A stretch of 64,000 bases of DNA from a bacterium (GTDB lineage Bacteria; UBA8248): assembly GCA_965213625.1 (NCBI GenBank), contig CBDBZU010000004.1:128001-192000 (forward strand). The letters run 5' to 3'. This document shows positions 31,578-64,000 of this stretch, piece after piece (position 1 is the stretch's first letter; the number at the start of each line of letters is the position of its first letter). The notes beneath the pieces are model-generated. The model was given only the letters and a program-made list of their open reading frames with translations, searched no databases and was not told the origin of the DNA. A program made the translations under genes and the position numbers.

Positions 31578-31649
31578 CTATGAACGCCGCATCCCGAGGG
31601 ACGCGCCGCTCAGCACGGACGACCCCGCCGCGAAGGCCAGGCACATGAG
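31578..31649 (-). pseudogene. Displaced duplicate of the MFS gene 3' end
   Basis: 31587-31649 matches 33771-33833 at 60/63 nt; encodes LMCLAFAAGSSVLSGASLGMRRS* versus MFS LMCLAFAAGSSILSGASLGMRD*. Confidence 0.9.
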
Positions 31650-31712
31650 ATGGGTTGCGGTATGTTGACCTGCCCCAAGAATGTGATTATTTTTATGGAA
31701 AGGAGGCGCGAC

Positions 31713-31850
31713 ATGGCCGACACGGAAATGACCCGCACCCCGATTCCAAACGAGGAAACCCGCGAAGCCATTCGGCAGGCGCGCGCCGGGGAAGGGCTGA
31801 GCACGTATAGCGGCGTCGAGGAGTTGATCGCCGAACTCGACGATGCGTGA
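31713..31850 (+). CDS. Short DinJ/RelB-like antitoxin (toxin-binding part)
   Basis: IPNEETREAI..AR.G......SVEEL-type C-terminal antitoxin motif; AAGGAGG RBS. Confidence 0.7.
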   Translation: MADTEMTRTPIPNEETREAIRQARAGEGLSTYSGVEELIAELDDA

Positions 31851-31887
31851 ACTTCGCGCAACCACGTAGTTAAAAAGAGACCTCAGA
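31843..31887 (+). pseudogene. YafQ-like toxin remnant
   Basis: ATG overlapping the antitoxin end reads MRELRATT*LKRDLR, resembling a YafQ N-terminus (TxQFKRDLK) with a nonsense codon, then truncated. Confidence 0.6.
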
Positions 31888-31948
31888 ATAAACGCTCGTA
31901 TAATCTGCGATTTTTCCGTATTCCGAACGACGCACTGCATAATATTCG

Positions 31949-32560
31949 CTAAGCGCGAGTGATATCCTTAACCATCACGTCTGCAGTGATCAGGTACTTG
32001 GCTAAAAGCGGTAGTTCCGGCGAAACACGTTGTGACACTAGAAGGTTGCCGCAGGTTACGCCCCGCACTTTTGCACCGTAGTATTTCCCTATCAATTTAA
32101 CAAAATTTTTACGAGAATTGGTATTTCTGTGCACAATATGGTTGCGGATAGACCGAATCTCGGTTAAGAAACTTGCGTAATTCTTGAGCAACTGGTGGCA
32201 CTGATCGGCGGAGTCGATCAGAAATTTTATGTTGTCCCGGATCTCGGCTCCGTTATTCCATGGAAGTGTGTAGCGGAATTTCGGGCGGTTAAGGCTATGC
32301 ATCGCCTTTATCGCTGCTGGGATGTTCCTTTGTTGGGCGAGAATAATCGGTGTGCTTCCATCGATATATGTTGCACCACAAACAAGTTTGCAAAATACGG
32401 ACCTCATGGTGTTTTCAATTAGGATTGCCAACCGTATCAATGCGATCTCGGCAATGAACTTGCGGTGCGCGGGTACCAGCGAAGACGTCGACGTTAGTAT
32501 ACCAGTCAGACGGGCGGTTTCCTTCGTAAAATTAGTGAAGTCATTCGTGAGCGACGGCAT
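31949..32560 (-). CDS. HEPN domain protein (putative RNase effector)
   Basis: N-terminal helix with E (ILIEN) and RxxxxH motif RNHIVH; starts 3 nt after the DUF262 stop. Confidence 0.7.
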   Translation of the reverse strand: MPSLTNDFTNFTKETARLTGILTSTSSLVPAHRKFIAEIALIRLAILIENTMRSVFCKLVCGATYIDGSTPIILAQQRNIPAAIKAMHSLNRPKFRYTLPWNNGAEIRDNIKFLIDSADQCHQLLKNYASFLTEIRSIRNHIVHRNTNSRKNFVKLIGKYYGAKVRGVTCGNLLVSQRVSPELPLLAKYLITADVMVKDITRA

Positions 32561-32563
32561 GAT

Positions 32564-33580
32564 TTAACTAAAAGCATCGGTCAAAGCTTTATTACGGATC
32601 CCCCGCTTATTAATGCGGTGCAAATTCCCTCCACTGAAGCCCTCAAGAAAGGTTGTTTGTTCGTCAGTCTTAACGTCGAGGTCTCGATAGGCGACCACTT
32701 TTGCGTCAATGTCGTACATGCACTGCTGGATATTGGCAACGTTGACGTTTTTTCGATTTCGTAGTCGATCCACAACTACCATCAAACTGAAGGCAAGCTG
32801 TTGCTGCTGGAACACTGTGTCGGAGAATGCAGTCGTTGGAATCGAAGCGAGCTTTCCAAATAAATCCTCCAAGCGCTCACTTAGTTCTTCCATTTTCGGG
32901 AAATCTACGTCGTAGTCTTTGTAGTATTTGGTGATTTTCGGAGCGCTGAAGTCGACTAAACCCTCAGCTAAGTTAATTACGAGATCTGATACAAATTGGA
33001 CCTCCTGCATGCGCGAAATCTGCGCTGCGGAGAAGATACCGGTCGAACGCCAGAAAGGTAGCCGCATAGCCGCCTGGCTGAGGCAAAACTGCTTAAAATC
33101 TCCACTGTATTGAGCGTTCCTCTTTTCTTGTGGGTTCAGCGTTTTGGAGATTGAGTTAATACGTCCAAATATTTCGATTACATCAGGTTCTTCGGCACCA
33201 ATGAGATAGCCAACCGAGAGCGCGGTACCGAGAAACAATTTCTTCTGCGCGTTCGTAAGTTCTGAGTATTTGACCTTCTTCTTGTGATCGGGATGCCCTG
33301 CCGCGAATTCATCGTTTCGGTACGAGATGATGGATCGAATGCGTTGCTGCCCGTCCACAACCTCTTTTATTGATTTCTCTCGCTCTACGTCAATTTGGTG
33401 CCGAATATAGATGCTCGGCACTGGCTTCCCCTCGAAGATAGTATTAACGAGGTATGCCTTCTGTGGGTTCGACCAAACTGACCGGCGTTGATACCAAGGA
33501 TCTATGTTAAGGCTACCATTGTTATAAATGTTTAGCAGATCTTGGATGACCAACGATTGGTAATCGACGCGTTCCATCAT
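32564..33580 (-). CDS. DUF262 (GmrS/ParB-Srx fold) domain protein
   Basis: YQRRSVW, VVDGQQR, FGRIN, LNPQEKRNA motifs; GAGGAG RBS. Confidence 0.88.
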   Translation of the reverse strand: MMERVDYQSLVIQDLLNIYNNGSLNIDPWYQRRSVWSNPQKAYLVNTIFEGKPVPSIYIRHQIDVEREKSIKEVVDGQQRIRSIISYRNDEFAAGHPDHKKKVKYSELTNAQKKLFLGTALSVGYLIGAEEPDVIEIFGRINSISKTLNPQEKRNAQYSGDFKQFCLSQAAMRLPFWRSTGIFSAAQISRMQEVQFVSDLVINLAEGLVDFSAPKITKYYKDYDVDFPKMEELSERLEDLFGKLASIPTTAFSDTVFQQQQLAFSLMVVVDRLRNRKNVNVANIQQCMYDIDAKVVAYRDLDVKTDEQTTFLEGFSGGNLHRINKRGIRNKALTDAFS

Positions 33581-33764
33581 CTCTCCTCAGGACTGTCTAA
33601 TTGAACGTGAACGATCATGACTCGAAATTGGGTGAGGCGCAACTCAAACTAGGAGTGAATATGTTAAGTTTTTAATATGTTGAATCAAGGTATGAATAAG
33701 CCAGTATTTCAGCAAGAAGGTCGAACAGTGATTCGTACGATTTCAACACCGAAGGCGGTGAGAG

Positions 33765-34982
33765 TCAATCCCGCATCCCGAGGGACGCGCCGCTCAGTAT
33801 CGACGACCCCGCCGCGAAGGCCAGGCACATGAGGGCCAGGCTCTCCACGCTTACGCCGTAATCGATCAGCCAGCCCATGACGACGGGCGAGAGCGCCGTG
33901 GACACCACCATGAACGAGGTGGCGAGCGAGCGGATGGCTCCCAGGTTCTCCACCCCGTAGATTTCCGCCCAGATGGCCCCGCCGATGGTGATTCGCACGC
34001 CGACGGTGACGCCCGTCATGATCATGTAGATGAGGGCTACGACCCAGTGGTCGGAACTCGCCAGCGCCAGAAGCGCGACGCACATGGGCGCGAGATGCCA
34101 GGGGAGGATTTTGACCGCGCCGACGCGGTCGATGAGGGGGCCGGTGAACAGCGTCAACGTGACGGAGAAAAGCGTGTAGAGCGTGTACGCGCCCGTGAAG
34201 AAGGCGAGGCTCCACCCCTTGGCCTCCACCAGATGCCCCATGTGAAAGAAAAAGCCGGTGCCGATGAACGAGGGGGCGAGAGAGACGGGCATGATGAGAT
34301 AAAAGCGCGGATCCTTGAGCACCTCCCTTCTTCCCCACACCCCTTTGGTTCTCGCCGCGGAAGCCGCCTCCCCCGTGCGCGCCGCGCGAGCCAGGTGCTC
34401 GTCTTCATGGCCTTTGAGCAGCCAGGCGACGGCGGGAATCAGCACGAGGGCGGAGAAGGCCGCCATCACCAGCCAGGTCTGCCGCCAGGAGAACCATGCG
34501 CTCAAGGCGACCGCCACGAGCGCCATGACCGCCTGGCCCGAGGGTCCGCCCATCGAGATGATGCTGACGGCGCGCCCGCGCTCCGCCGTGAAATGCCGGC
34601 CGATGCTCGTCACCGAGGTGTGGACCATCAGCCCCTGGCCCGTGAGCCTGAGCGCGAAAAGCGTGAAGAGCAGGGCCGGGAAGGCGGGCGCCGCCGCCAT
34701 CAGGACGCAGGAGGCGACTAACCCCGCGCAGACGCACAGGGCGAAAACCTTGAGCCGCGTCTTGTCGATCATCCGGCCTATCCATATCAGGCACATGGCG
34801 CTCGATACGGTGGCGACGGCGTAGGCCAGGCCGAACTCCCCGTGGGAGAGTGCGAAGGCGGCGCGGATATCGGTGTTGAAAACGGCGATGTAATAGGATT
34901 GCCCGAAGCACGAAAAAAACGTGAGCAGGAGGCCAAAGGACAGAAAACGGCGGTTTTTCCACGCGAAGGAGAGATATTCCAA
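33765..34982 (-). CDS. MFS transporter
   Basis: About 12 hydrophobic segments, GRMIDKT and GPLIDRVG motif-A repeats. Confidence 0.9.
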   Translation of the reverse strand: MEYLSFAWKNRRFLSFGLLLTFFSCFGQSYYIAVFNTDIRAAFALSHGEFGLAYAVATVSSAMCLIWIGRMIDKTRLKVFALCVCAGLVASCVLMAAAPAFPALLFTLFALRLTGQGLMVHTSVTSIGRHFTAERGRAVSIISMGGPSGQAVMALVAVALSAWFSWRQTWLVMAAFSALVLIPAVAWLLKGHEDEHLARAARTGEAASAARTKGVWGRREVLKDPRFYLIMPVSLAPSFIGTGFFFHMGHLVEAKGWSLAFFTGAYTLYTLFSVTLTLFTGPLIDRVGAVKILPWHLAPMCVALLALASSDHWVVALIYMIMTGVTVGVRITIGGAIWAEIYGVENLGAIRSLATSFMVVSTALSPVVMGWLIDYGVSVESLALMCLAFAAGSSILSGASLGMRD

Positions 34983-38548: not shown

Positions 38549-38982
38549 GGGGGTTGTTGAAAAAGTCCTTGCTGTTGAGTTGGGATTCCACCTGTAGGGG
38601 CCGCATAGTATGCGGCCCTTCCCGTCCGGCATTCGGGACGCATGTATGTCGGACATATATGTCCGACCTACACGGAAACGGCAATGATGCCGGAATGACG
38701 GCGGTGGTTAATTCCGAGTGAGGAGAGGGGAAATTCACTCCCCCCTTGAGGGGGAGTCGATGAAGCCGAGCGGTATTTGCGAAGGCTGAATCGGTGGGGG
38801 GTAAAATGCGTATTATTGCCATTCCGAATTATACCCCCCACCAGTTCACTTTCGGGCTTACGCCCTCAGTTCACTGTCGGTCTTCCCCGAGGGAGACCGA
38901 CCCTCAAGGGGGGAGTGAATTCCCTCTCTCATCGGTCAGTCAGATACACCGAATCGCGAAATCAGGGTTTTTCAACACCCCC
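38549..38982. mobile_element. Nested MITE: TIR element containing a REP doublet and a CACTCCCCCCTTGAG element
   Basis: GGGGGTTGTTGAAAAA...TTTTTCAACACCCCC; REP pair at ~38594-38670; inner element 38736-38917. Confidence 0.75.
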
Positions 38983-40015: not shown

Positions 40016-40251
40016 GGGCGTATTGCTCGAAGTTTCATGCAACGCCATTAAGACTTAAGAGCTAATACTTAATAAGAGTGTGCGTTTTGCAGTTATATTG
40101 CGCGAACGCTTCATAAGGGAATTCGTTATTAAGGGTTATGGGGTAAGTCTTAATAAGGGGATTTTGAGAGATTCCTTATTTCGTGATTTGGCTATGGAGC
40201 CGACCGGGGAGGGAGAAGATTACGCAATCCCCTTGCAGAACGCCAACCAAC

Positions 40252-40470
40252 CACTCCCCCCTTGAGGGGGAGTCGAAGAGCTGAGGGCGTAAGCCCGAAA
40301 GCGATTCGGTGGGGGGTATAACCCGGAGTGGCGATAAAACGCGATTCACCCCCCACCGATTCAGCCTTCGCACAAACCGCTCGGCTTCATCGACTCCCCC
40401 TCAAGGGGGGAGTGAAATTCAGAGCGCTCCCCCTCCAGGCATTTTCAACAACCGCTCGCGAGCGGCCCCT
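40252..40470. mobile_element. CACTCCCCCCTTGAGGGGGAGTCGA palindromic element plus a MITE end and REP
   Basis: 40252-40414 bounded by long inverted repeats; inverted homolog of 38736-38917 and 49690-49895; followed by TTTTCAACAACC and CCGCTCGCGAGCGG. Confidence 0.72.
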
Positions 40471-42487: not shown

Positions 42488-42678
42488 GGTTTCACTATTC
42501 GCTTGATTTGCATTCCAAAGAATATAAAAAAATATTCCAAGGAATACAAATTGAGATAGCGGAATGTTCCTGAAGCTGCCGGACCGCGTTCAGCGGCGGG
42601 AGAGGTTGGACGATCTCTTTGGCTGATTACGGCTGAGACTGCTCGCGAATCCGGGCCGCTCGCGAGCGGCGCCTACAG

Positions 42679-43005
42679 TCAACCGCGCGGCTCATCCTCC
42701 GCGATGCCTTTAAGCACGACCGGGGCGCGGTCGGGAAATTCGGCGACCAGCGAGAGGCGCCCGCCCATCGCCTCGACGGTCTTTCTGAGCGTGGAGAGCA
42801 GGAGGTCGCTTCGCTTCTCGAGCCTCGATACGCCGTCCTGCGTGATGCCCAACTCCTCCGCCATGCGCGCCTGTGTCAACTCCCGCGCCTTTCTGAGATC
42901 GCGCAGGGTCATCTCCTCCGCGACCAACTCCGCCGCTCGCGCCTCGACCTTCTTGCGTCGTGCGGGGCTTAGCTTTTTGATCTTTTTGTTTACGTTTACG
43001 GGCAT
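42679..43005 (-). CDS. XRE/HigA-like HTH antitoxin (orphan)
   Basis: TLRDLRKARELTQ..MAEELGITQDGVSRLEKRSDLLLSTLRKTVEAMGG.L.LVAEFPD. Confidence 0.85.
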   Translation of the reverse strand: MPVNVNKKIKKLSPARRKKVEARAAELVAEEMTLRDLRKARELTQARMAEELGITQDGVSRLEKRSDLLLSTLRKTVEAMGGRLSLVAEFPDRAPVVLKGIAEDEPRG

Positions 43006-43253
43006 GGTTCTTTCTCTCGAATGTTAGGTGTGGACGTATGATATGTTGTGGGAGACATATGTTGTCAAGTGCATGTTCTATAAAAAAGAAAGCTTTTTAG
43101 ATGTAGATTTTCTGGAGGTTGCAAGTGAAAAATAAAACGATCAGCAAGCTCCATCTTCGAGTAAATGACTAGACAAGTAGAAGTTTACCCGATAGGCAAG
43201 TTTGCGAAGAACAAAAACCACCTAATCTAATCAAGACAACTGGAGACATAAGA

Positions 43254-44210
43254 GTGAATGAATTGCCAGCTATCGTCGTACACTGCGACTGGAGCGTGGA
43301 GCAAGGAAAAAGATGGATGGCTTGTGCAGTCCGCAACGGAAACCTCTGGGAACTCAAGCAACCTGAGTTAGTTGGAACTACGAAGGACTTGTTCCAGAGG
43401 TTACAAAATCGAAAAAAAACACCTGGATGTTTATTTGTAGGTTTAGACTTTCCGATCGGCTTGCCAAAATACTACGGCGAAAAAACAGGATTCTCTAATT
43501 TTCGTAACGCTCTTCGAAATTTTGGTTGTGATAAATGGAAAGATTGGTATTCCGTTTGTGAAACTCACGAGGAAATATCAATTACTCGCCCATTCTATCC
43601 AATGAGACCTGGAGGCACCGAGCAAAAGCATCTTCTGGACGGGCTAATGTGCGAAACCCCTGAGCAACTCCTGCGTATTTGCGAGAGAAAAACAAGTAAT
43701 CGAAACGCAGCCTGCATGTTGTTTTGGACCCTTGGCGGCAATCAAGTTGGGAAAGCTGCTATTTCAGGCTGGCGTGAACTTCTTGCACCAAATTTTGATG
43801 TGTTAGGACTTTGGCCGTTCGACGGACAATTGCATGAACTGTTCGCTCAATTCGATATCGTCATCGCTGAGACATATCCTGGGGACGCTTATGGGCAACT
43901 GGGCATCCCACGATATCCCCGATGGAGCAAACGAAAGCGTGCCGGTAGACAGTCAATATCCCAACATCTTTTGAACTGGTTAAGCTCACGTCCAGTTTCA
44001 TTTCATGCAAGACTGGATAGCAACATCAGGCATGGTTTTTCAGAGAATTCACAAGGAAAAGACAAGTTCGGTGAAGATAAATTTGACGCAACCGTGGGGC
44101 TATTCTGTATGCTTGATGTGGTATGTGGCCGCATTCCCGAAAATATTCCAGGCAATAAGTCTATTACTCGTTGGGAAGGGTGGATCCTTGGGCAAGAATT
44201 CAATATCTGA
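43254..44210 (+). CDS. DUF429-like protein (predicted RNase H-fold nuclease)
   Basis: HCDWS, GLDFPIGLP, FWTLGGNQVGKAA, LWPFDG, AETYP, EDKFDA, EGWILG. Confidence 0.68.
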   Translation: MNELPAIVVHCDWSVEQGKRWMACAVRNGNLWELKQPELVGTTKDLFQRLQNRKKTPGCLFVGLDFPIGLPKYYGEKTGFSNFRNALRNFGCDKWKDWYSVCETHEEISITRPFYPMRPGGTEQKHLLDGLMCETPEQLLRICERKTSNRNAACMLFWTLGGNQVGKAAISGWRELLAPNFDVLGLWPFDGQLHELFAQFDIVIAETYPGDAYGQLGIPRYPRWSKRKRAGRQSISQHLLNWLSSRPVSFHARLDSNIRHGFSENSQGKDKFGEDKFDATVGLFCMLDVVCGRIPENIPGNKSITRWEGWILGQEFNI

Positions 44211-44336
44211 AATAGGCAATGGTCGCTCATTACAATGAGAGGTTTCCGCATGATCGAGTGACGGCATACGGATCACGGAAAATCGTCACAGCCGGGTGTA
44301 CCACACCGAGGTTGGCTCTGCGTCGGAATCGAAGAT

Positions 44337-44765
44337 TTGGAAGAACCATCCCAAATTTGTGAGATGTGTGAAAGTGTTGAAATTCGTTACGTGCATTTAA
44401 TGCAACACTCTGACTACCCTGAAACATTAGGTGTTGGTTGCATTTACGCCGAAAACATGGAGAACGACAAAGTAAATCCGGGCCGGAGAGAGAAAAAGCT
44501 GAAGACTAAGGCGCGGCGGCGGAAGAAATGGTCGAATCGTGAGTGGCGAACCTCTATCAAGGGTAATCCCTATCTCAACACCGAAGGTTTCAATTTGACT
44601 ATTTTCCCGGCAACGGGCAGTAGAGGCTTGTATTGGATGCTCCTAGTGACCCACCGAGAAAGTGGCGCCTCTCAGTTTGGCCGTCGACGCTATAGATCAG
44701 AGGAAGAAGCAAAAAAAGCCGCTCTCGATGCTTTGATCTGGACCAAGGAACATCTTGGATACTGA
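44337..44765 (+). CDS. Hypothetical protein with Zn-finger-like CEMC..IRYVH..GC motif (5' end possibly disrupted)
   Basis: The frame stays open upstream (GKSSQPGVPHRGWLCVGIEDL) back to an in-frame TGA at 44259 just after ATG 44250. Confidence 0.55.
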   Translation: MEEPSQICEMCESVEIRYVHLMQHSDYPETLGVGCIYAENMENDKVNPGRREKKLKTKARRRKKWSNREWRTSIKGNPYLNTEGFNLTIFPATGSRGLYWMLLVTHRESGASQFGRRRYRSEEEAKKAALDALIWTKEHLGY

Positions 44766-44919
44766 TCTCCATCCACACGCCTCCGTCTCTTTGCCCAGTA
44801 TCGAGAGTTTTCCCATAGTTGATCAGGCGAGTTGCGGTTTTTACAAGTATGTTCTGGGACGTTGGCCGCTCGCTTGAAAATTCTCATTCCGTTGAAAACC
44901 CTAAGAAAAGAACACCCCC

Positions 44920-44984
44920 CTACTCCACCTTTCTCCTCATCCTCTACTTCTCGGCGCGGGCGCGTTTATCCTTCAAGCGTTTTT
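44920..44984 (-). pseudogene. Displaced, diverged duplicate of the arfB 3' end
   Basis: 52/65 nt identical to 49124-49188, ungapped, with 16 consecutive identical nt (TCCTTCAAGCGTTTTT); encodes KRLKDKRARAEK*RMRRKVE* versus ArfB KRLKDKRQRADKKRMRGKVG*. Confidence 0.85.
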
Positions 44985-45172
44985 GCAGGGGAGAGTGCCA
45001 AAGACAACAATAGCTTGCCAAAGTTTGCCGCAGTACTTGGTACGGTGCATTATAATGAAAAAGATGCGGAAGTATGGTAGACAAAGCATCGAAACCAAAC
45101 GAGTGAGAAATACAGTCTCAGGATACGTCGTTAAACTATTAAAGCATGTTGAAGGCTAAAGGTGAAGGATTT

Positions 45173-47857
45173 ATGGAGGGAACCCAGCAATTCCAATCCG
45201 AAACCATGCGAGCCGCACTAAACCTGCCGAACGGCGCGCGGTTTTATCGTTGCGCCTTGCAAGTGAACCCATTCGCCTATCTCGCCAGACATAATAAATC
45301 AACATCATTTCAGTCCGAAGACGAATACAACGAAGCAATCATTGAGGCCTGCCTTAAGACAGAAACCGAGGTGATTGGCGTTACGGACCATTACCGTATA
45401 GAGGATTCCAGGAAACTAATCGCCTCCGCTCGCGAAGCCGGTTTATGGGCTTTTAGCGGATTTGAAGCCATAACAAAGGACGGCGTTCACTTTCTTTGCC
45501 ATTTCGATCCCGATAAAGACAATAATCTGGAGAGATTCATCGGCGACTGCGGTATTCACGATTCTAGCCAACTCTCACCGATAGGAGAACTAGACTGCAC
45601 TGAGCTTCTGGACCATTCAAAGGAATGGGGGGCTACTTGCATTGCTGCGCATGTGGCGTCGGAAGGTGGTCTTTTAAGAAAGCTGTCAGGACAAACACGG
45701 ATCAAAGTCTGGAAATCGCCTAACCTGCTTGCCTGCGCGCTTCCCGGACCCGCTGACGACGCACCGCAGGGGGTCAAAGAGATACTTAAAAATAAGGACG
45801 CTCAACACAAGCGCGGACGCGCAGTAGCTATCATAAATGCGTCAGATGTAAGCGATCCCGAAGACCTGAGGAAGGAAAGCGCGTCCTGCTTCATCAAGAT
45901 GTCGGATGTCTCTGTCGAAGCATTTCGCCAGGCATTTCTTGATCCGGAATCCCGTGTAAGGCTACACAGCGATCCCCAACAAGAACCCCATGCCGAACTT
46001 CTTGCTATGACTTGGGAAGGCGGTTTTTTACAAGACACCTCAATTCATTTCAATGAGAATCTCAATGCCGTGGTCGGCGGACGCGGCACGGGTAAATCCA
46101 CGATGATCGAGAGCATCCGTTATGTGTTGGGTCTTGAGCCACTCGGAGAAGACGCGCGCAAGGCGCACGAAGGAGTGGTTCGCAACGTATTGAAAGCGGG
46201 GACAAAAGTTTCGCTGATGGCGCGGTCACACAAACCACCAAAACGTTGCTACAGCATCGAGCGCTCAGTGCCTAACCCGCCGGTCGTCAAGGACGAAACT
46301 GGTGAAGTGTTGCCTATATCACCACGAGACGCGATGCCCGGCGTAGAAGTTTTCGGCCAACATGAAATCTCGGAACTCACCAAAAGCCCCGAAAAACGCA
46401 CCTTGCTATTGGAGCGGTTCATCGAGAGTGATCCGTCGATGGCCGGACGAAAAGTGAAATTGCAATTGGAACTTGAGAGGTCGCGAAGCAGGATTGTGGA
46501 CGTAAGGCGAGAGATGAGAACGCTCGAGGAGCGACTTGCAGTTCTGCCGGGTCTGGAAGAAACCGAGAAGCGCTTTCAGCAGGCCGGCCTGGAAGAGCGG
46601 CTCAAGGAAAAAAGCCTTCTCATTAAGGAAGAGCGCCTATTTTCAAACCTTGCCGAGCGGATGCAACCGTTTCGGACGCTTCACCATGAACTGATTGAAG
46701 CCCTTCCGATCGATACAGCATTCGTGTCCGACAAGGCGCTTGATGGATTACCAAACTCAGAAACATTGCGGGAACTAGAAACAATTCTTAAAACCCTGAG
46801 TACACGCCTCAAAGTGGTTAGCGTGCATTTTGCCGAAGCTTTGGCCGAGACCGATACTGCAATCGAGAACCTTAGGGCGAGATGGGATAAACAACGCTCG
46901 GCAATTGAGGATAATTACGAGCAGTTATTACGAGAACTTCAGAAATCGAATATCGATGGCGCGGAATTTATCCAACTCCGCAGGCAGATCGAAGAATTGC
47001 GTCCGCTTAAAGACCGAATGGAAAATCTTAATCGCGATTTGGGCACCCATGAAGCTCACCGCCGCAACCTGCTCTCAGAATGGGAGGACGTCAAAGGTAG
47101 TGAATTTCGTGAAATTGAGAAAGCCACCAGAAAAGTTTCAAAGCAACTCAAAGGGCGAGTGCAGGTCGAAGTTACGATGGCAGGCAACCGCGATCCATTG
47201 GAACGAGTCTTAAGGGAGGTTGGCGGAAACCTCGCTGCCGCTATCGAGCGTCTTCGAGAACTGGAACAACTTTCCCTCCGCGAGTTTGCGCAATGCTGTC
47301 GGGAAGGCAAAGAATCCCTGATGGAGAACTACGATCTCCCCTCTGGCTCAGCAGAACGGATATCGCGGGCCGAGCCCGAGCTATTCATGAGAATCGAAGA
47401 ACTGGAACTTCCCGCGACAACTCAAATTGAATTAAATACTGCTGCGGAGGGAGACCAAGCGGTATGGCAAACGCTGGAAGCGCTTTCCACCGGACAAAAG
47501 GCAACCGCCGTTCTGTTGCTCTTGCTCTTGGAATCCGAGGCTCCACTTGTCGTCGATCAGCCCGAAGACGACCTCGACAACCGTTTCATCACCGAAGGCG
47601 TCGTACCGATCATGCGACGGGAAAAACGTCGACGGCAATTCGTCTTCTCAACGCACAACGCGAATATTCCCGTGCTGGGTGATGCCGAACTCATCTTGGG
47701 CCTTTCCGCTTCCGGCGAGGCGGAAGAAGGGCAGGCCAGGATTGCTCCAGAACATATGGGTTCGATTGATTCCCAGCCGGTTCGGGAACTGGTCGAGGAA
47801 ATCCTCGAAGGCGGGAAAGACGCCTTCGAAATGCGTCGTTCCAAGTACGGTTTCTAG
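45173..47857 (+). CDS. PHP-domain / SMC-like ABC ATPase fusion (TrlF/Ppl-like)
   Basis: N-terminal PHP-like domain (CALQVNP, VTDH, GFE, H, AAH, ASD), Walker A GGRGTGKS, long coiled coil, LSTGQK, VVDQPEDDLD, STHN. Confidence 0.85.
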   Translation: MEGTQQFQSETMRAALNLPNGARFYRCALQVNPFAYLARHNKSTSFQSEDEYNEAIIEACLKTETEVIGVTDHYRIEDSRKLIASAREAGLWAFSGFEAITKDGVHFLCHFDPDKDNNLERFIGDCGIHDSSQLSPIGELDCTELLDHSKEWGATCIAAHVASEGGLLRKLSGQTRIKVWKSPNLLACALPGPADDAPQGVKEILKNKDAQHKRGRAVAIINASDVSDPEDLRKESASCFIKMSDVSVEAFRQAFLDPESRVRLHSDPQQEPHAELLAMTWEGGFLQDTSIHFNENLNAVVGGRGTGKSTMIESIRYVLGLEPLGEDARKAHEGVVRNVLKAGTKVSLMARSHKPPKRCYSIERSVPNPPVVKDETGEVLPISPRDAMPGVEVFGQHEISELTKSPEKRTLLLERFIESDPSMAGRKVKLQLELERSRSRIVDVRREMRTLEERLAVLPGLEETEKRFQQAGLEERLKEKSLLIKEERLFSNLAERMQPFRTLHHELIEALPIDTAFVSDKALDGLPNSETLRELETILKTLSTRLKVVSVHFAEALAETDTAIENLRARWDKQRSAIEDNYEQLLRELQKSNIDGAEFIQLRRQIEELRPLKDRMENLNRDLGTHEAHRRNLLSEWEDVKGSEFREIEKATRKVSKQLKGRVQVEVTMAGNRDPLERVLREVGGNLAAAIERLRELEQLSLREFAQCCREGKESLMENYDLPSGSAERISRAEPELFMRIEELELPATTQIELNTAAEGDQAVWQTLEALSTGQKATAVLLLLLLESEAPLVVDQPEDDLDNRFITEGVVPIMRREKRRRQFVFSTHNANIPVLGDAELILGLSASGEAEEGQARIAPEHMGSIDSQPVRELVEEILEGGKDAFEMRRSKYGF

Positions 47858-47859
47858 TC

Positions 47860-49086
47860 ATGACTACGCGGACGGAGCTATTGGAAATAATCGCAAACGG
47901 CGAAAACTCCGGCATTGATTTCAAGCGAGATGTCTTGCAAAACCAAGACCTCGCAAAAGAACTAGTCGCCTTCTCGAATTTAGATGGTGGAATGGTTCTG
48001 CTGGGAGTAGATGATGATGGGAATATTACCGGCTTAACTCGGCCTCGCTTGGAAGAGTGGGTCATGACTGCATGCCGGGACAAGATCAGGCCAGCCATCA
48101 TTCCATTTTTCGAGACGATTAAGAATGTGGAACAGGGAAAGGACGTGGCGATTGTACGTGTTCCGCGCGGAGGCGACGTACACAGCCAGTGGCATAACAA
48201 CAGGAATACTTATTACATCCGGGTAGGTTCACAAAGTCGGGAACCGACGCCACAGGAACTAAGCCGCTTGTTTCAACAACGCGGCGCGTTTCGCGCCGAT
48301 CTAAGACCGATTTCCGGTGCAACCATTGAGGATTTAGACCGCCGTCGACTCAAGGATTACTTCAGCCGGGTTCGTCAACAAGAAATTCCAGCAGACACAA
48401 ACGACTCGAATTGGCATTCCTTGCTAATCAATACGGAAATCCTGCTCGAAGAGGGCGTAACCCTTTCAGGAATGCTGCTCTTCGGAAATACGCCGAACCG
48501 GTTTCTGCCACAGGCGGGCATTGATGCGGCGGCGTTTCCGGGAATGGAAAAAGATTATGCGGCGAAAGAGCGAGTGGCACTGCGCGGACCTATGACACCA
48601 CTCTTGGATCAGAGCAATACTATTGTGGAATCTGGCTTGGTCGAGCAGGCACTGGATTTCGTCAGACGCAACACTCCCGTGACTGCCGTTCTCGAAGATG
48701 GCGCACGTCGAGTGGAAAAAAGAACATATCCAGACAAGGTCATCCGAGAAGCCATAGTAAATGCCCTGATCCACCGAGACTATCTTCTAGGAAACGTCGA
48801 TATCGAACTGGCGATTTATGAGGACCGGCTGGAAATTATCTCGCCCGGTAAGCTCCCGAACGGAATCACGCCGGATCGAATGCGTGTTGGAACACGCGCG
48901 GCACGAAACCAACTCCTGAAAGACGTTATGCGTGACTACGGGTATCTCGAACATATGGGAATGGGCGTACCCCTCATAATAATTCGCGGAATGATGGAAC
49001 ACAACGAGACCGACCCCGACCTTGCCGAAGAAGATGAAAGGTTCATGGTTCGGCTCTTTGCGGGGAATCAATCTAAATGCGAGTAA
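47860..49086 (+). CDS. Schlafen/AlbA_2 domain + HATPase_c_4 (RecG-C-like) protein
   Basis: GENSGIDFK..AFSN..GG..LGVDDDG (AlbA_2); REAIVNALIHRDY, SPG.LP, RN, E..GMG (HATPase_c_4). Confidence 0.85.
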   Translation: MTTRTELLEIIANGENSGIDFKRDVLQNQDLAKELVAFSNLDGGMVLLGVDDDGNITGLTRPRLEEWVMTACRDKIRPAIIPFFETIKNVEQGKDVAIVRVPRGGDVHSQWHNNRNTYYIRVGSQSREPTPQELSRLFQQRGAFRADLRPISGATIEDLDRRRLKDYFSRVRQQEIPADTNDSNWHSLLINTEILLEEGVTLSGMLLFGNTPNRFLPQAGIDAAAFPGMEKDYAAKERVALRGPMTPLLDQSNTIVESGLVEQALDFVRRNTPVTAVLEDGARRVEKRTYPDKVIREAIVNALIHRDYLLGNVDIELAIYEDRLEIISPGKLPNGITPDRMRVGTRAARNQLLKDVMRDYGYLEHMGMGVPLIIIRGMMEHNETDPDLAEEDERFMVRLFAGNQSKCE

Positions 49087-49123
49087 CAACCTAAATATTT
49101 GCGTACAGTTCTCCTGAAAAAAT

Positions 49124-49537
49124 TCACCCCACCTTCCCTCTCATTCTCTTCTTATCGGCGCGTTGGCGTTTGTCCTTCAAGCGTTTTTCTTGCGACCCTC
49201 GGGTGGGGCGCGTGGGGCGGCGCGGCCGGGGCGGGTCGGCGGCGGCGGCGAGGGCGGCGCGCAGCTTCTCGAGGCAGTCGGCGACGTTCCGGCCCTGATC
49301 GCGAAAGCGGCTGCTCGCGATGACCACGTGGCCCTCGCGCGTCACGCGGCGCGGGTGGAGCGCGCGGAGCCTCGCCTTCACGCCCTCGGGCGCGCTCGGC
49401 GAGGCGGCCATGTTCCAGCGCAGCACCGCCTTGGAGGAGACCTTGTTGACGTTCTGCCCGCCGGGGCCGGAGCTTCGCGCGAACTGGAAGTGGATTTCGC
49501 GCAAGGGGATGCGGAGCCTCTCGTTCACGATGAGCAT
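49124..49537 (-). CDS. arfB: Alternative ribosome rescue factor ArfB (peptidyl-tRNA hydrolase)
   Basis: ARSSGPGGQNVNKVSS (GGQ), R.Q..N, basic C-tail RRPTRPT..S.EKRL..K. Confidence 0.95.
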   Translation of the reverse strand: MLIVNERLRIPLREIHFQFARSSGPGGQNVNKVSSKAVLRWNMAASPSAPEGVKARLRALHPRRVTREGHVVIASSRFRDQGRNVADCLEKLRAALAAAADPPRPRRPTRPTRGSQEKRLKDKRQRADKKRMRGKVG

Positions 49538-49622
49538 GTTGATACTCCCGGGGGCGTCAGGGGGGCGGCGGGTGGCGATTGCGGGGGCGGCTTGATTGAG
49601 ACGGCAAGCGCGTCAGGGGTTC

Positions 49623-49952
49623 GGGGCTGTTGAAAAAGCCCTTACGGATCGCGCCAAAACATTCTCCCCTTGCAGAGCCCCCCAACAACCACTCCCCCCT
49701 TGAGGGTCGGTCTATCCTCCTCGGGTAGACCGACGAAGAGGCCGAGCGGTTTATGCGAAGGCCGATTCGGTGGGGGGTGAATCGCGTTTTATCGCCACTC
49801 CGAGTTATACCCCCCACCAGTTCACTTTCGGGCTTACGCCCTCAGTTCACTGTCGGGCATTCCCCTCGGGATGCCCGACCCTCAAGGGGGGAGTGAACTT
49901 CAAAAGTTTGCGCGCAACCCAAAATTGCTCTTAGGGCTTTTTCAACAACCCC
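49623..49952. mobile_element. Nested MITE: TIR element containing a CACTCCCCCCTTGAG element
   Basis: GGGGCTGTTGAAAAAGCCCT...AGGGCTTTTTCAACAACCCC; inner element 49690-49895. Confidence 0.75.
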
Positions 49953-62489: not shown

Positions 62490-63665
62490 ATGCCCAGAAG
62501 AAGCGAGATCAAGCTTACCAAACGCGTGGTCGACGCGTTATCTGTCGAGAAGAACGACGCCGCCTTCTGGGACCGGGAGCTGGCCGGCTTCGGGGTGCGG
62601 GTCTACGCCACGGGCCGGAAGGTCTACGTGGTGCAGTCGAGAGGGCCGTGGGGTCCCAAACGAGTGACGCTTGGACGCCACGGCGAGATGTCTTGTGAGG
62701 AGGCGAGGAAGCAAGCCGCACTCGTCATCGACCGCATCAAGCGGGGCGAGGAGCCCGAGCCCAAGCCGCCTGAGGCCGCGCCCACGGTGGCCGGTCTGGC
62801 CGAACGCTTCATGCGCGACCACGCCGAAACACACTGCAAGCCCGACACCGCGAGGTCGTACCGCTCCCTGATCGAGAACCACGTCGAACCGGCGCTTGGC
62901 GGGATGGCGGTGGCCCAAGTCGGCCGGGCAGAGGTCGCCGCGCTCCATCACGGTCTCCGCGATACGCCCGCCGTGGCCAACGCGGCGGTGGGACTGCTCT
63001 CTAAAATGTTCAAGATGGCTGAGGCGTGGGGCCTGCTTCCTGCCGGAAACAACCCGTGCCGGGGGCTTCTCCGCTACCGGACGCGGAAGCGGGAGCGGTT
63101 CCTGACGCAGGATGAGTTCCGCCGCCTCGGACGTGCGCTCAGAGAGTTCGAGGCGGAGGGAAGGACGTGGGCGGCCGCGGTGGCGGCGATCAGGCTCCTG
63201 GCGCTTACCGGGTGCAGGCGGAGCGAGATACTGGACTTGCACTGGGACGACGTGGACCGCACGGCGGGGGAGCTCAGGCTTAAGGAAGCCAAGGCGGGCC
63301 CGCGCATGGTTCCGCTGACGGCGCCCGCGCTCAAGGTGCTGGAGGGGATCCCCCGCTCGCCGGAGGACCCCTGGGTGATCTCTTCGAAGTACGGGAGGGG
63401 CCGCCTGGGGAACCTCTCCTACTACTGGGGGTCCGTGAGGGAGCGGGCGGGGCTGGACGACGTTCGAATCCATGACCTGAGACATAGTTACGCCTCGCGG
63501 GCGCTCGCGCTGGGCGAAAGTCTGTCTGCGATCGGCCGGCTGCTCGGCCACCGTCACGTGGTGAGCACGGCGCGCTACGCGCACCTGATGCGCGATGCCG
63601 AGAAGGCGGCGGCCGCCCGTGTGGGGGAGAGCATCGGCGTCCACGTCAAGAGCCGGGGGAGGTAG
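62490..63665 (+). CDS. Tyrosine recombinase/integrase with arm-DNA-binding N-domain
   Basis: FWD.ELAGFGVRV..TG.K (arm-binding), TGCRRSEI (R), HDLRHSYAS (HxxR), LLGH, TARYAH (Y); catalytic set intact. Confidence 0.93.
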   Translation: MPRRSEIKLTKRVVDALSVEKNDAAFWDRELAGFGVRVYATGRKVYVVQSRGPWGPKRVTLGRHGEMSCEEARKQAALVIDRIKRGEEPEPKPPEAAPTVAGLAERFMRDHAETHCKPDTARSYRSLIENHVEPALGGMAVAQVGRAEVAALHHGLRDTPAVANAAVGLLSKMFKMAEAWGLLPAGNNPCRGLLRYRTRKRERFLTQDEFRRLGRALREFEAEGRTWAAAVAAIRLLALTGCRRSEILDLHWDDVDRTAGELRLKEAKAGPRMVPLTAPALKVLEGIPRSPEDPWVISSKYGRGRLGNLSYYWGSVRERAGLDDVRIHDLRHSYASRALALGESLSAIGRLLGHRHVVSTARYAHLMRDAEKAAAARVGESIGVHVKSRGR

Positions 63666-63675
63666 AGTGGAAACG

Positions 63676-64000
63676 ATGCAGCCCAAAATTAAAACGCTCT
63701 CGAACCGCGCAGTCGCGAAACTCACGGTCGAGAAAGACACTGTCTTCTGGGATCGTGATCTCACCGGCTTCGGGGTGCGGGTGTATCCCACGGGCGGCAA
63801 GGTCTACGTCGCCCAGGCGCGGGGACCGGGAGGACCCAGGCGCGTTACGGTGGGCCGCTACGGGGTCATCCATGCCGATGAGGCCAGGAAGCGCGCCGCC
63901 CACATCATCGCGCGCATCAAGGCGGGCGAGGAGGCGGTTCCCGAACCGATCAAGCCCGCCTGCGGTCCCACGGTGGCCGAGCTCGCCAAGCGCTATCTCG
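63676..64000 (+). CDS. Second tandem tyrosine integrase paralog (runs off window end)
   Basis: Manual translation MQPKIKTLSNRAVAKLTVEKDTVFWDRDLTGFGVRVYPTGGKVYVAQARGPGGPRRVTVGRYG..PTVAELAKRYL, clearly paralogous to 62490..63665; starts 10 nt after its stop. Confidence 0.9.
   Translation, partial: MQPKIKTLSNRAVAKLTVEKDTVFWDRDLTGFGVRVYPTGGKVYVAQARGPGGPRRVTVGRYGVIHADEARKRAAHIIARIKAGEEAVPEPIKPACGPTVAELAKRYL

Follow-up and report, generated by a model that had tools for sequence, protein, structure and literature searches.

In a 64,000-nucleotide stretch of bacterial DNA (the window: contig CBDBZU010000004.1, positions 128,001 to 192,000, lineage UBA8248), the arfB gene is followed by a two-gene cassette that is bracketed by two diverged copies of the 3' end of arfB itself. 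Comparison with relatives supports the view that these two tails are alleles of different lineages, and that the tail now completing arfB most likely came in together with the cassette. The insertion belongs to the class termed insertion with long target duplication (PMC2853133), a known class that is newly seen at arfB. Entry of the cassette likely took one homologous crossover and one non-homologous joint, and we see about an even chance that this happened through a single crossover of a circularised donor fragment without any integrase. In what follows, G000 is the genome under study (4.15 Mb), other G numbers denote genomes of relatives, and nt positions are arfB coordinates unless the window is given.

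Ungapped alignment of 44920-44984 with 49124-49188 reproduced the 52 identities in 65 positions reported in the preliminary description, with the 16-nt identical block (44969-44984 = 49173-49188) at the gene-proximal end of both tails and, as also reported, a cassette of 4.1 kb (4139 nt, 44985-49123) between them. Elsewhere in the genome, the best ungapped match to the working tail was 36/65 and that to the orphan 37/65, while 20 base-shuffled tails gave best scores of 35-39 of 65, a comparison that had been set beforehand as a test able to refute the alignment. A 7796-nt short-read contig (run X2, possibly the source sample) covers 42500-49653 with one difference, and an artefact of the long-read assembly is therefore unlikely. 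The repeat is thus confirmed as a genuine feature, not alignment noise. Nine codons differ between the tails: three changes are synonymous, one swaps the stop codon (TGA vs TAG), four are missense and one is nonsense. The earlier statement that several differences are synonymous or conservative holds for five of the nine, with D/E as the sole conservative change among the missense codons, and fails for the remaining four, namely three non-conservative missense changes and the nonsense codon. The latter, an AAG to TAG change at 44944-44946 of the orphan, was present as claimed.

The gene at 49124-49537 (minus strand) is identified as arfB by a profile search (NF006718, 155.6 bits, cut-off 100) and by its match to YaeJ (E 6e-22), and its nearest named relative comes from a Nitrospinota record. 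In E. coli YaeJ the tail residues R118, L119, K122, K129 and R132 are needed (PMC3950681). Equivalents of all five are retained in the working tail, next to an intact GGQ domain, and the stop codon of the orphan coincides with the equivalent of K129. The body of arfB has a GC content of 0.74 compared with 0.51 for the cassette. Multi-copy palindromic elements with inverted ends, abundant genus-wide, lie just upstream of arfB (window 49623-49952) and also at 40243-40421 and about 38730-38980.

To find the tail of the vertical lineage, as had been proposed earlier, we took G020, the closest relative of G000, as reference. The arfB genes of G000 and G020 show 4 differences in the first 340 nt and 12 in the last 65, and the G020 tail is matched better by the orphan (56/65) than by the working tail (53/65). 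The orphan shares with G020 the TAG-GGG end and the rare states at nt 366 and at nt 374-375. At five coding sites G020 agrees with the working tail, four of them being orphan changes found in at most one other allele; private changes of the orphan lie at nt 388, 399, 400 and 402. The working tail points to another lineage. In G006, and at the second arfB copy of G022, the same TrlF and AlbA cassette, as homologues at 76-77% identity, stands right behind arfB, the gene ends in TGA and there is no distal tail; the 3' flank of the working tail resembles that of G006. Cassette-type sequence can be aligned with these two genomes up to about the joint near 44985, where it diverges and where microhomology is limited to a few nucleotides. 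Because the cassette is less alike its G006 and G022 homologues (73-82% identity; TrlF 73-75%) than a core gene is (87.5%), the donor would be a third lineage. A contig from a second study (run X5) has 13 differences over 49129-49556 and carries the GCC codon of the orphan at 49163-49165. Taken together, these comparisons bear out two proposals of the preliminary description, that the tails are alleles of separate lineages and no fresh duplication, and that incoming DNA swapped the C-terminal tail of ArfB while bringing in the cassette. If the resident tail had been duplicated locally and had then decayed, the private changes of the orphan, its stop included, would be accounted for. However, each copy shares different states with different relatives, and third-position bias across tail pairs at other genes (see below) also speaks against it. 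We regard this alternative as barely credible, and equally so an assembly chimera of two strains, against which stands the single short-read contig across the locus.

Table 1. Features of the window around arfB and at the MFS gene (window coordinates).
Feature	Position	Strand	Remarks
arfB, 137 aa, intact	49124..49537	-	likely chimeric: vertical to about nt 340-365, donor-type beyond
Working arfB tail	49124..49188	-	codons 118-137 and TGA; likely arrived with the cassette
Orphan arfB tail	44920..44984	-	likely the displaced vertical allele, decaying; 52/65 to the working tail
16-nt identical block	44969..44984	-	likely crossover interval, beside the illegitimate joint at about 44985
Nonsense codon TAG in orphan	44944..44946	-	codon equivalent to YaeJ K129
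Cassette, 4139 nt, GC 0.51	44985..49123		no recombinase or transposase; no terminal inverted repeat of at least 8 nt
TrlF-family ATPase, 903 aa	45146..47857	+	related to anti-phage Ppl; predicted defence role
Schlafen/AlbA_2 and RecG-C-terminal-like (HATPase_c_4) protein, 408 aa	47860..49086	+	
Distal cargo behind the orphan	43254..44765	+	DUF429-like protein (43254-44210) and 142-aa open reading frame (44337-44765)
Helix-turn-helix (HTH) gene	42679..43005	-	sequence shared with G020 restarts here, 97% from 43076 to 40699
MFS gene tail copies, 63 nt, 95% alike	31587..33833	-	working 33771-33833, orphan 31587-31649; around a 2.1-kb GmrSD_N cassette

Both cassette genes are oriented toward arfB, and both are predicted to be anti-phage genes. 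The larger protein was considered as a Ppl (PADLOC Ppl, E 7e-39) and rejected, since it scored 164 bits with NF042955, whose cut-off is 1000; it was assigned instead to the TrlF family (NF045780, 510 bits, cut-off 350). A search of the literature on TrlF returned nothing relevant. Behind the orphan lies the distal cargo (GC 0.46), which is absent from 22/22 genus relatives and is likely an older cassette. It gave no Pfam match; its DUF429-like gene had an Atlas feature score of 0.99 to DUF429 clusters, in which the family is found on 24-36% of members.

The preliminary description had presented arfB as an insertion target, and we asked whether it serves as a site for site-specific integration, with the 16-nt block serving as att core for a tyrosine recombinase that was later lost or is supplied in trans. 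Integrase sites that restore the 3' end of their target, such as those of e14 or phage 21 at icd and of islands at guaA, classically show an identical block and, behind it, a recoded tail. The arfB locus is like these elements in having a replacement tail and a displaced fragment with an identical core. The genome also has 29 matches to PF00589, and another of its tail-orphan sites is the 3' end of GMP synthase, a known integrase target. However, the arfB cassette holds no recombinase or transposase, the closest PF00589 match lies 13.5 kb off at window 63099, and breakpoints differ in every relative, which largely refutes this explanation. The locus therefore lacks both features by which integrase islands are recognised, a cognate integrase within or bordering the element and a fixed crossover position. 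Moreover, the cassette homologues in G006 and G022 come without a distal tail copy, and the same layout stands at many unrelated genes. We thus consider site-specific integration at arfB very improbable.

An origin of the tail in a mobile element was likewise rejected. The search for it in such elements, suggested with the original description, found no match in 50,697 phage records and no exact 23-mer in viral contigs, and the three plasmid matches of 26-34 nt were at chance level. That description had also remarked that arfB was not known to it as a described integration hotspot, and in agreement with it we found no paper naming arfB or yaeJ as such a site. A 9-nt string preceding both the G000 orphan and one G014 orphan was examined as a shared junction motif and set aside, as it can be read as cassette or as decayed arfB; no common junction motif was seen at other sites among the matches listed. 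As a separate observation, tyrosine recombinase genes occur in adjacent pairs about 1.2 kb apart at window 63099-64000 and beyond and at about nine other places on C4, one pair being duplicated identically at C4:6342-8022.

Survey of the genes downstream of arfB across relatives, another suggestion made at the outset, showed that this context is far from invariant. arfB is present in 17/22 genus relatives; G007, a single-contig, 100% complete genus member, gave no ArfB match, and nor did 9 genomes of other families in a search of the phylum. In 13/18 genomes (G000 included) the interval from arfB to the next shared core gene holds defence-type genes; 3/18 have other cargo, and 2/18 have no cargo after the full arfB. 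The defence-type genes comprise type II restriction-modification (RM) with Vsr, type ISP RM, Dsr1-like SIR2, short Argonaute with SIR2, helicase-nuclease, HEC-02 and QatC-like genes besides TrlF with AlbA, some of them assigned through BLAST clusters of which the cluster representative was scanned. No integrase was found among the 50 cargo proteins scanned. The 3' flank of arfB is thus a defence hotspot in this genus. Some cassettes carry no system name (L031:3553-6634 in G013, L037 on contig 11 and L039 on contig 318 of G017); these include a block with AdoMet decarboxylase-like and DUF3326 genes and a QatC-like pair, and are candidate new defence systems.

Extra pieces of arfB recur in this flank. 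G014 has tails from about nt 333 and, weakly (E 0.23), from nt 374, together with a head to about nt 62-70, and G004 has a head to nt 324. G022 has a whole second copy from about -19, and G044, of another genus, has the last ~38 nt. Across genomes the pieces measure about 38, 65, 82 and 430 nt, and their ends differ in each. The 5' leader of the second G022 copy is unlike that of the first, which matches G006, G008 and G010; such a foreign leader is predicted by integration of a circle and not by pure duplication of resident DNA. This second copy is itself split after nt 29 by a 3.1-kb insert (L040:7230-10421) that has an IS1595-type transposase and terminal inverted repeats and shows an 8-nt target duplication. 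Fragments of arfB joined to homologues of arfB-linked cassettes also occur elsewhere, on G013 contig 1 (L146:4105-7597) and G017 contig 271 (L147:1007-1729). A wider scan of the collection gave 5 loci; of the 20 loci outside the genus (14 in the same family, 6 distant), 19 showed no convincing tail copy, several of their contigs ending within 1-6 kb, and G044 was the exception.

When G000 was compared with itself, many genes unrelated to arfB turned out to have the tail-orphan layout. Of the 16 hits that an automated test returned over 206 tiles, 13, arfB included, were convincing by eye; three more known cases lie across tile borders. The anchors include an MFS gene in the window and genes for dienelactone hydrolase, phosphodiesterase, recN, peptide deformylase and GMP synthase, the cargo includes GmrSD and TIR proteins, transporters and enzymes, and repeats are 36-370 nt long. 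The MFS cassette holds a GmrSD_N gene and a 203-aa open reading frame; in G020, G008 and G004 the end of the MFS gene continues directly into the sequence downstream of the orphan. A CAP12/Pycsar-type TIR gene behind the phosphodiesterase gene, with a 181-nt duplication (G000:C4:547534-549372, L051), is missing in 5/5 relatives, and so is the cargo of the MFS/Tct site. Empty sites to which the insertion is purely additive were found in 4/5 relatives for phosphodiesterase/TIR and in 1/5 each for M20 peptidase and RidA-like; the phosphodiesterase/TIR and MFS/Tct insertions are additive without deletion of resident DNA. Cargo at the recN, deformylase and hydrolase loci is common to some relatives. 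The identical block stands at the 5' end of the repeat in some pairs and at the 3' end in others. In 14 tail pairs, differences fell 62/41/128 at codon positions 1/2/3 (p 5e-12), and this third-position bias argues for alleles, not decayed copies. Two further cases stand on their own: a 308-nt, 97% copy of the end of a NADH dehydrogenase membrane subunit gene (presumably nuoN) with a 4.2-kb insert in G011 (L131:2074-6848), a recent event in a core gene, and a Na+/H+ exchanger gene tail in three copies in G000 (C4:3804984-3816135), which marks two stacked insertions.

To compare frequencies, the automated test was also applied to other genomes. It gave 16 hits in 4.12 Mb of G000, 4 in 0.4 Mb of G011 and 1 in 0.4 Mb of G047, and among outgroups 2 in 0.8 Mb of G032 and none in 0.2 Mb each of G030 and G037. 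Review by eye dropped two false hits and one doubtful hit in G000, one false and one doubtful in G011, and both in G032. After review the counts were 16 in 4.92 Mb versus 0 in 1.2 Mb (p about 0.03 by hand, with a small control), whereas unfiltered counts of 20 versus 2 were not significant (p 0.13). Enrichment of the family over the outgroups is thus suggested only.

In all models that we consider live, one end would have been joined by homology and the other illegitimately. In the reading that we favour, a related lineage would have supplied a piece of chromosome that began at arfB nt 350 and extended past the stop codon across the AlbA and TrlF genes, and the ends of this piece would have been joined into a circle. 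A single crossover between the circle and the resident arfB, in or beside the 16-nt block, would then have given arfB the donor tail and placed the cassette behind it. The resident tail and the older cargo would have been shifted 4.2 kb downstream, where the displaced tail would later have acquired its stop codon. In E. coli, donors that were trimmed and re-circularised gave duplications of 109-950 bp 10 times more often than homology-facilitated illegitimate recombination (HFIR), of which the usual product is a deletion (PMC3240628). We favour the circle because it follows the duplication route that is commoner in experiment, allows the identical block to stand anywhere in the repeat and explains the foreign leader in G022. 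That arfB was hit repeatedly would follow from its being the conserved flank of a defence hotspot and from tail swaps that preserve the key residues.

Several observations weigh against the circle. Homology at arfB amounts to only 65 nt with a perfect run of 16 nt, a poor substrate for RecA, and about half of all repeats are shorter than 75 nt. An allele-swap comparison of circle and linear models at 9 sites was mixed against relatives, without the clean swap that was predicted. Ku end joining was found in 0/25 genomes searched. Neither a circle nor an excision joint nor an empty arfB allele was seen in the contigs examined, which cannot show absence. Single-tail arfB loci are common among relatives, but none of 22 leads from arfB directly into the distal cargo of G000; as no relative holds the exact pre-insertion state, the order of arrival is one that we infer. 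The state of nt 384, common to G020 and the working tail, breaks the clean pattern of a vertical orphan, and the 14 tail pairs used for codon positions had been picked by eye.

The short homology would be no obstacle if linear DNA had invaded from one side. Here the resident arfB would have been broken near nt 350, or a linear donor would have paired along the whole gene; the gene-side end would have copied the donor tail and cassette and rejoined the resident tail by microhomology, giving the same product without a circle. The switch to the donor allele (nt 340-365) does coincide with the start of the orphan (nt 350), and a whole-gene anchor removes the short-homology problem. The arfB pieces joined to cassettes as units in G013 and G017 fit as well, Furuta et al. 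suggested double-strand breaks as the cause (PMC2853133), and HFIR has been invoked for arrays of the type VI secretion system (T6SS) and Rhs (PMC5361080). However, the second G022 copy carries a foreign-type leader, several tail pairs are most alike at their stop end, and HFIR normally removes resident DNA (PMC3240628). Under the strict deletion criterion of HFIR, 22 relatives offer no pre-insertion arfB allele for comparison, and the phosphodiesterase/TIR and MFS/Tct sites are additive. We hold such a break-primed event to be possible, if on the unlikely side.

The order of events could also have been the reverse, with the TrlF cassette and its tail resident and a G020-like fragment, with a 65-nt arfB stub at its start and the DUF429-like cargo behind, arriving later. 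This newcomer would have recombined at the downstream HTH-amidase anchor with an illegitimate joint at 44985, as in ordinary HFIR. The distal cargo has the lower GC content and occurs in G000 alone, while the TrlF cassette stands at arfB in two relatives, and the proximal cargo of the dienelactone hydrolase site is shared with G020 and G011 at roughly vertical identity. By contrast, two events are needed, with the stub starting by chance within about 16 nt of an older allele switch; TrlF is only 73-75% identical to G006 and G022 compared with 87.5% for the core gene; and what relatives lack at four other sites is the proximal cargo. We consider this order improbable.

Returning to the single crossover of a circle, the locus can be set beside several known systems. 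Furuta, Abe and Kobayashi surveyed the long-target-duplication class in 2010, offering no more than a suggestion for its origin (PMC2853133, in which Nobusato et al. 2000 is cited as reference 37). With them it shares a small insert lacking a mobility gene, long direct repeats of variable length, often over a start or stop codon, an intact gene and defence-type cargo; a repeat above 30 bp (65 nt) and an insert under 20 kb without a mobile element (4139 nt, two genes) were both found. It departs from their screening rule, R and M genes in the insert, in that the cargo is TrlF and AlbA_2 here, and transporters or enzymes at other G000 sites, although RM systems hold the same position behind arfB in relatives. 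The arfB repeats, alleles of different lineages, are 80% alike, compared with 96-100% in four rows of Table 2 of that paper, and a dozen or more sites lie in one genome. Among the papers listed for this class, none dealt with the present lineage, judging by titles or the start of abstracts. As in the experiments of Amarir-Bouhram et al. 2011 (PMC3240628), one-sided homology leaves an insert bracketed by a partial gene duplication, with the difference that a laboratory plasmid and identical donor were used there and that the natural repeats are diverged and often shorter (36-370 nt). The displacement arrays of T6SS and Rhs (Kirchberger et al. 2017, PMC5361080) similarly have a conserved upstream anchor, new modules beside it, older parts downstream and no integrase; here, however, the anchor is a housekeeping gene whose own tail is kept as an orphan and not replaced. 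Core defence hotspots (PMC10250203) likewise place varied defence systems at one position between conserved genes, in another lineage and with other flanking genes.

arfB, then, is not special in itself: it forms the conserved border of a defence hotspot in a single genus. This border is still a practical place to mine defence genes, for 18 genomes hold about a dozen different cassettes there, several without a name. More tentatively, and with doubts outweighing confidence, we suggest that members of this Nitrospinota family capture short pieces of their relatives' chromosomes by single crossover without an integrase, possibly via a particle like a gene transfer agent. This would be one of the main routes by which they gain genes throughout the genome; it would not depend on restriction enzymes in the cargo and would be far commoner than in sister families. 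ComEC was found in 22/25 genomes but also in 10/14 control genomes. One genome with a dozen or more events, in which donor and resident alleles can be told apart, would allow the circle, break-primed and reverse-order models to be separated among conspecific genomes. If the suggestion is true, the chimeric orphan gene ends would record each crossover, making the mechanism of long target duplication readable from genomes, and at arfB the stop codon of the orphan would make it costly to lose the cassette through the 16-nt block.

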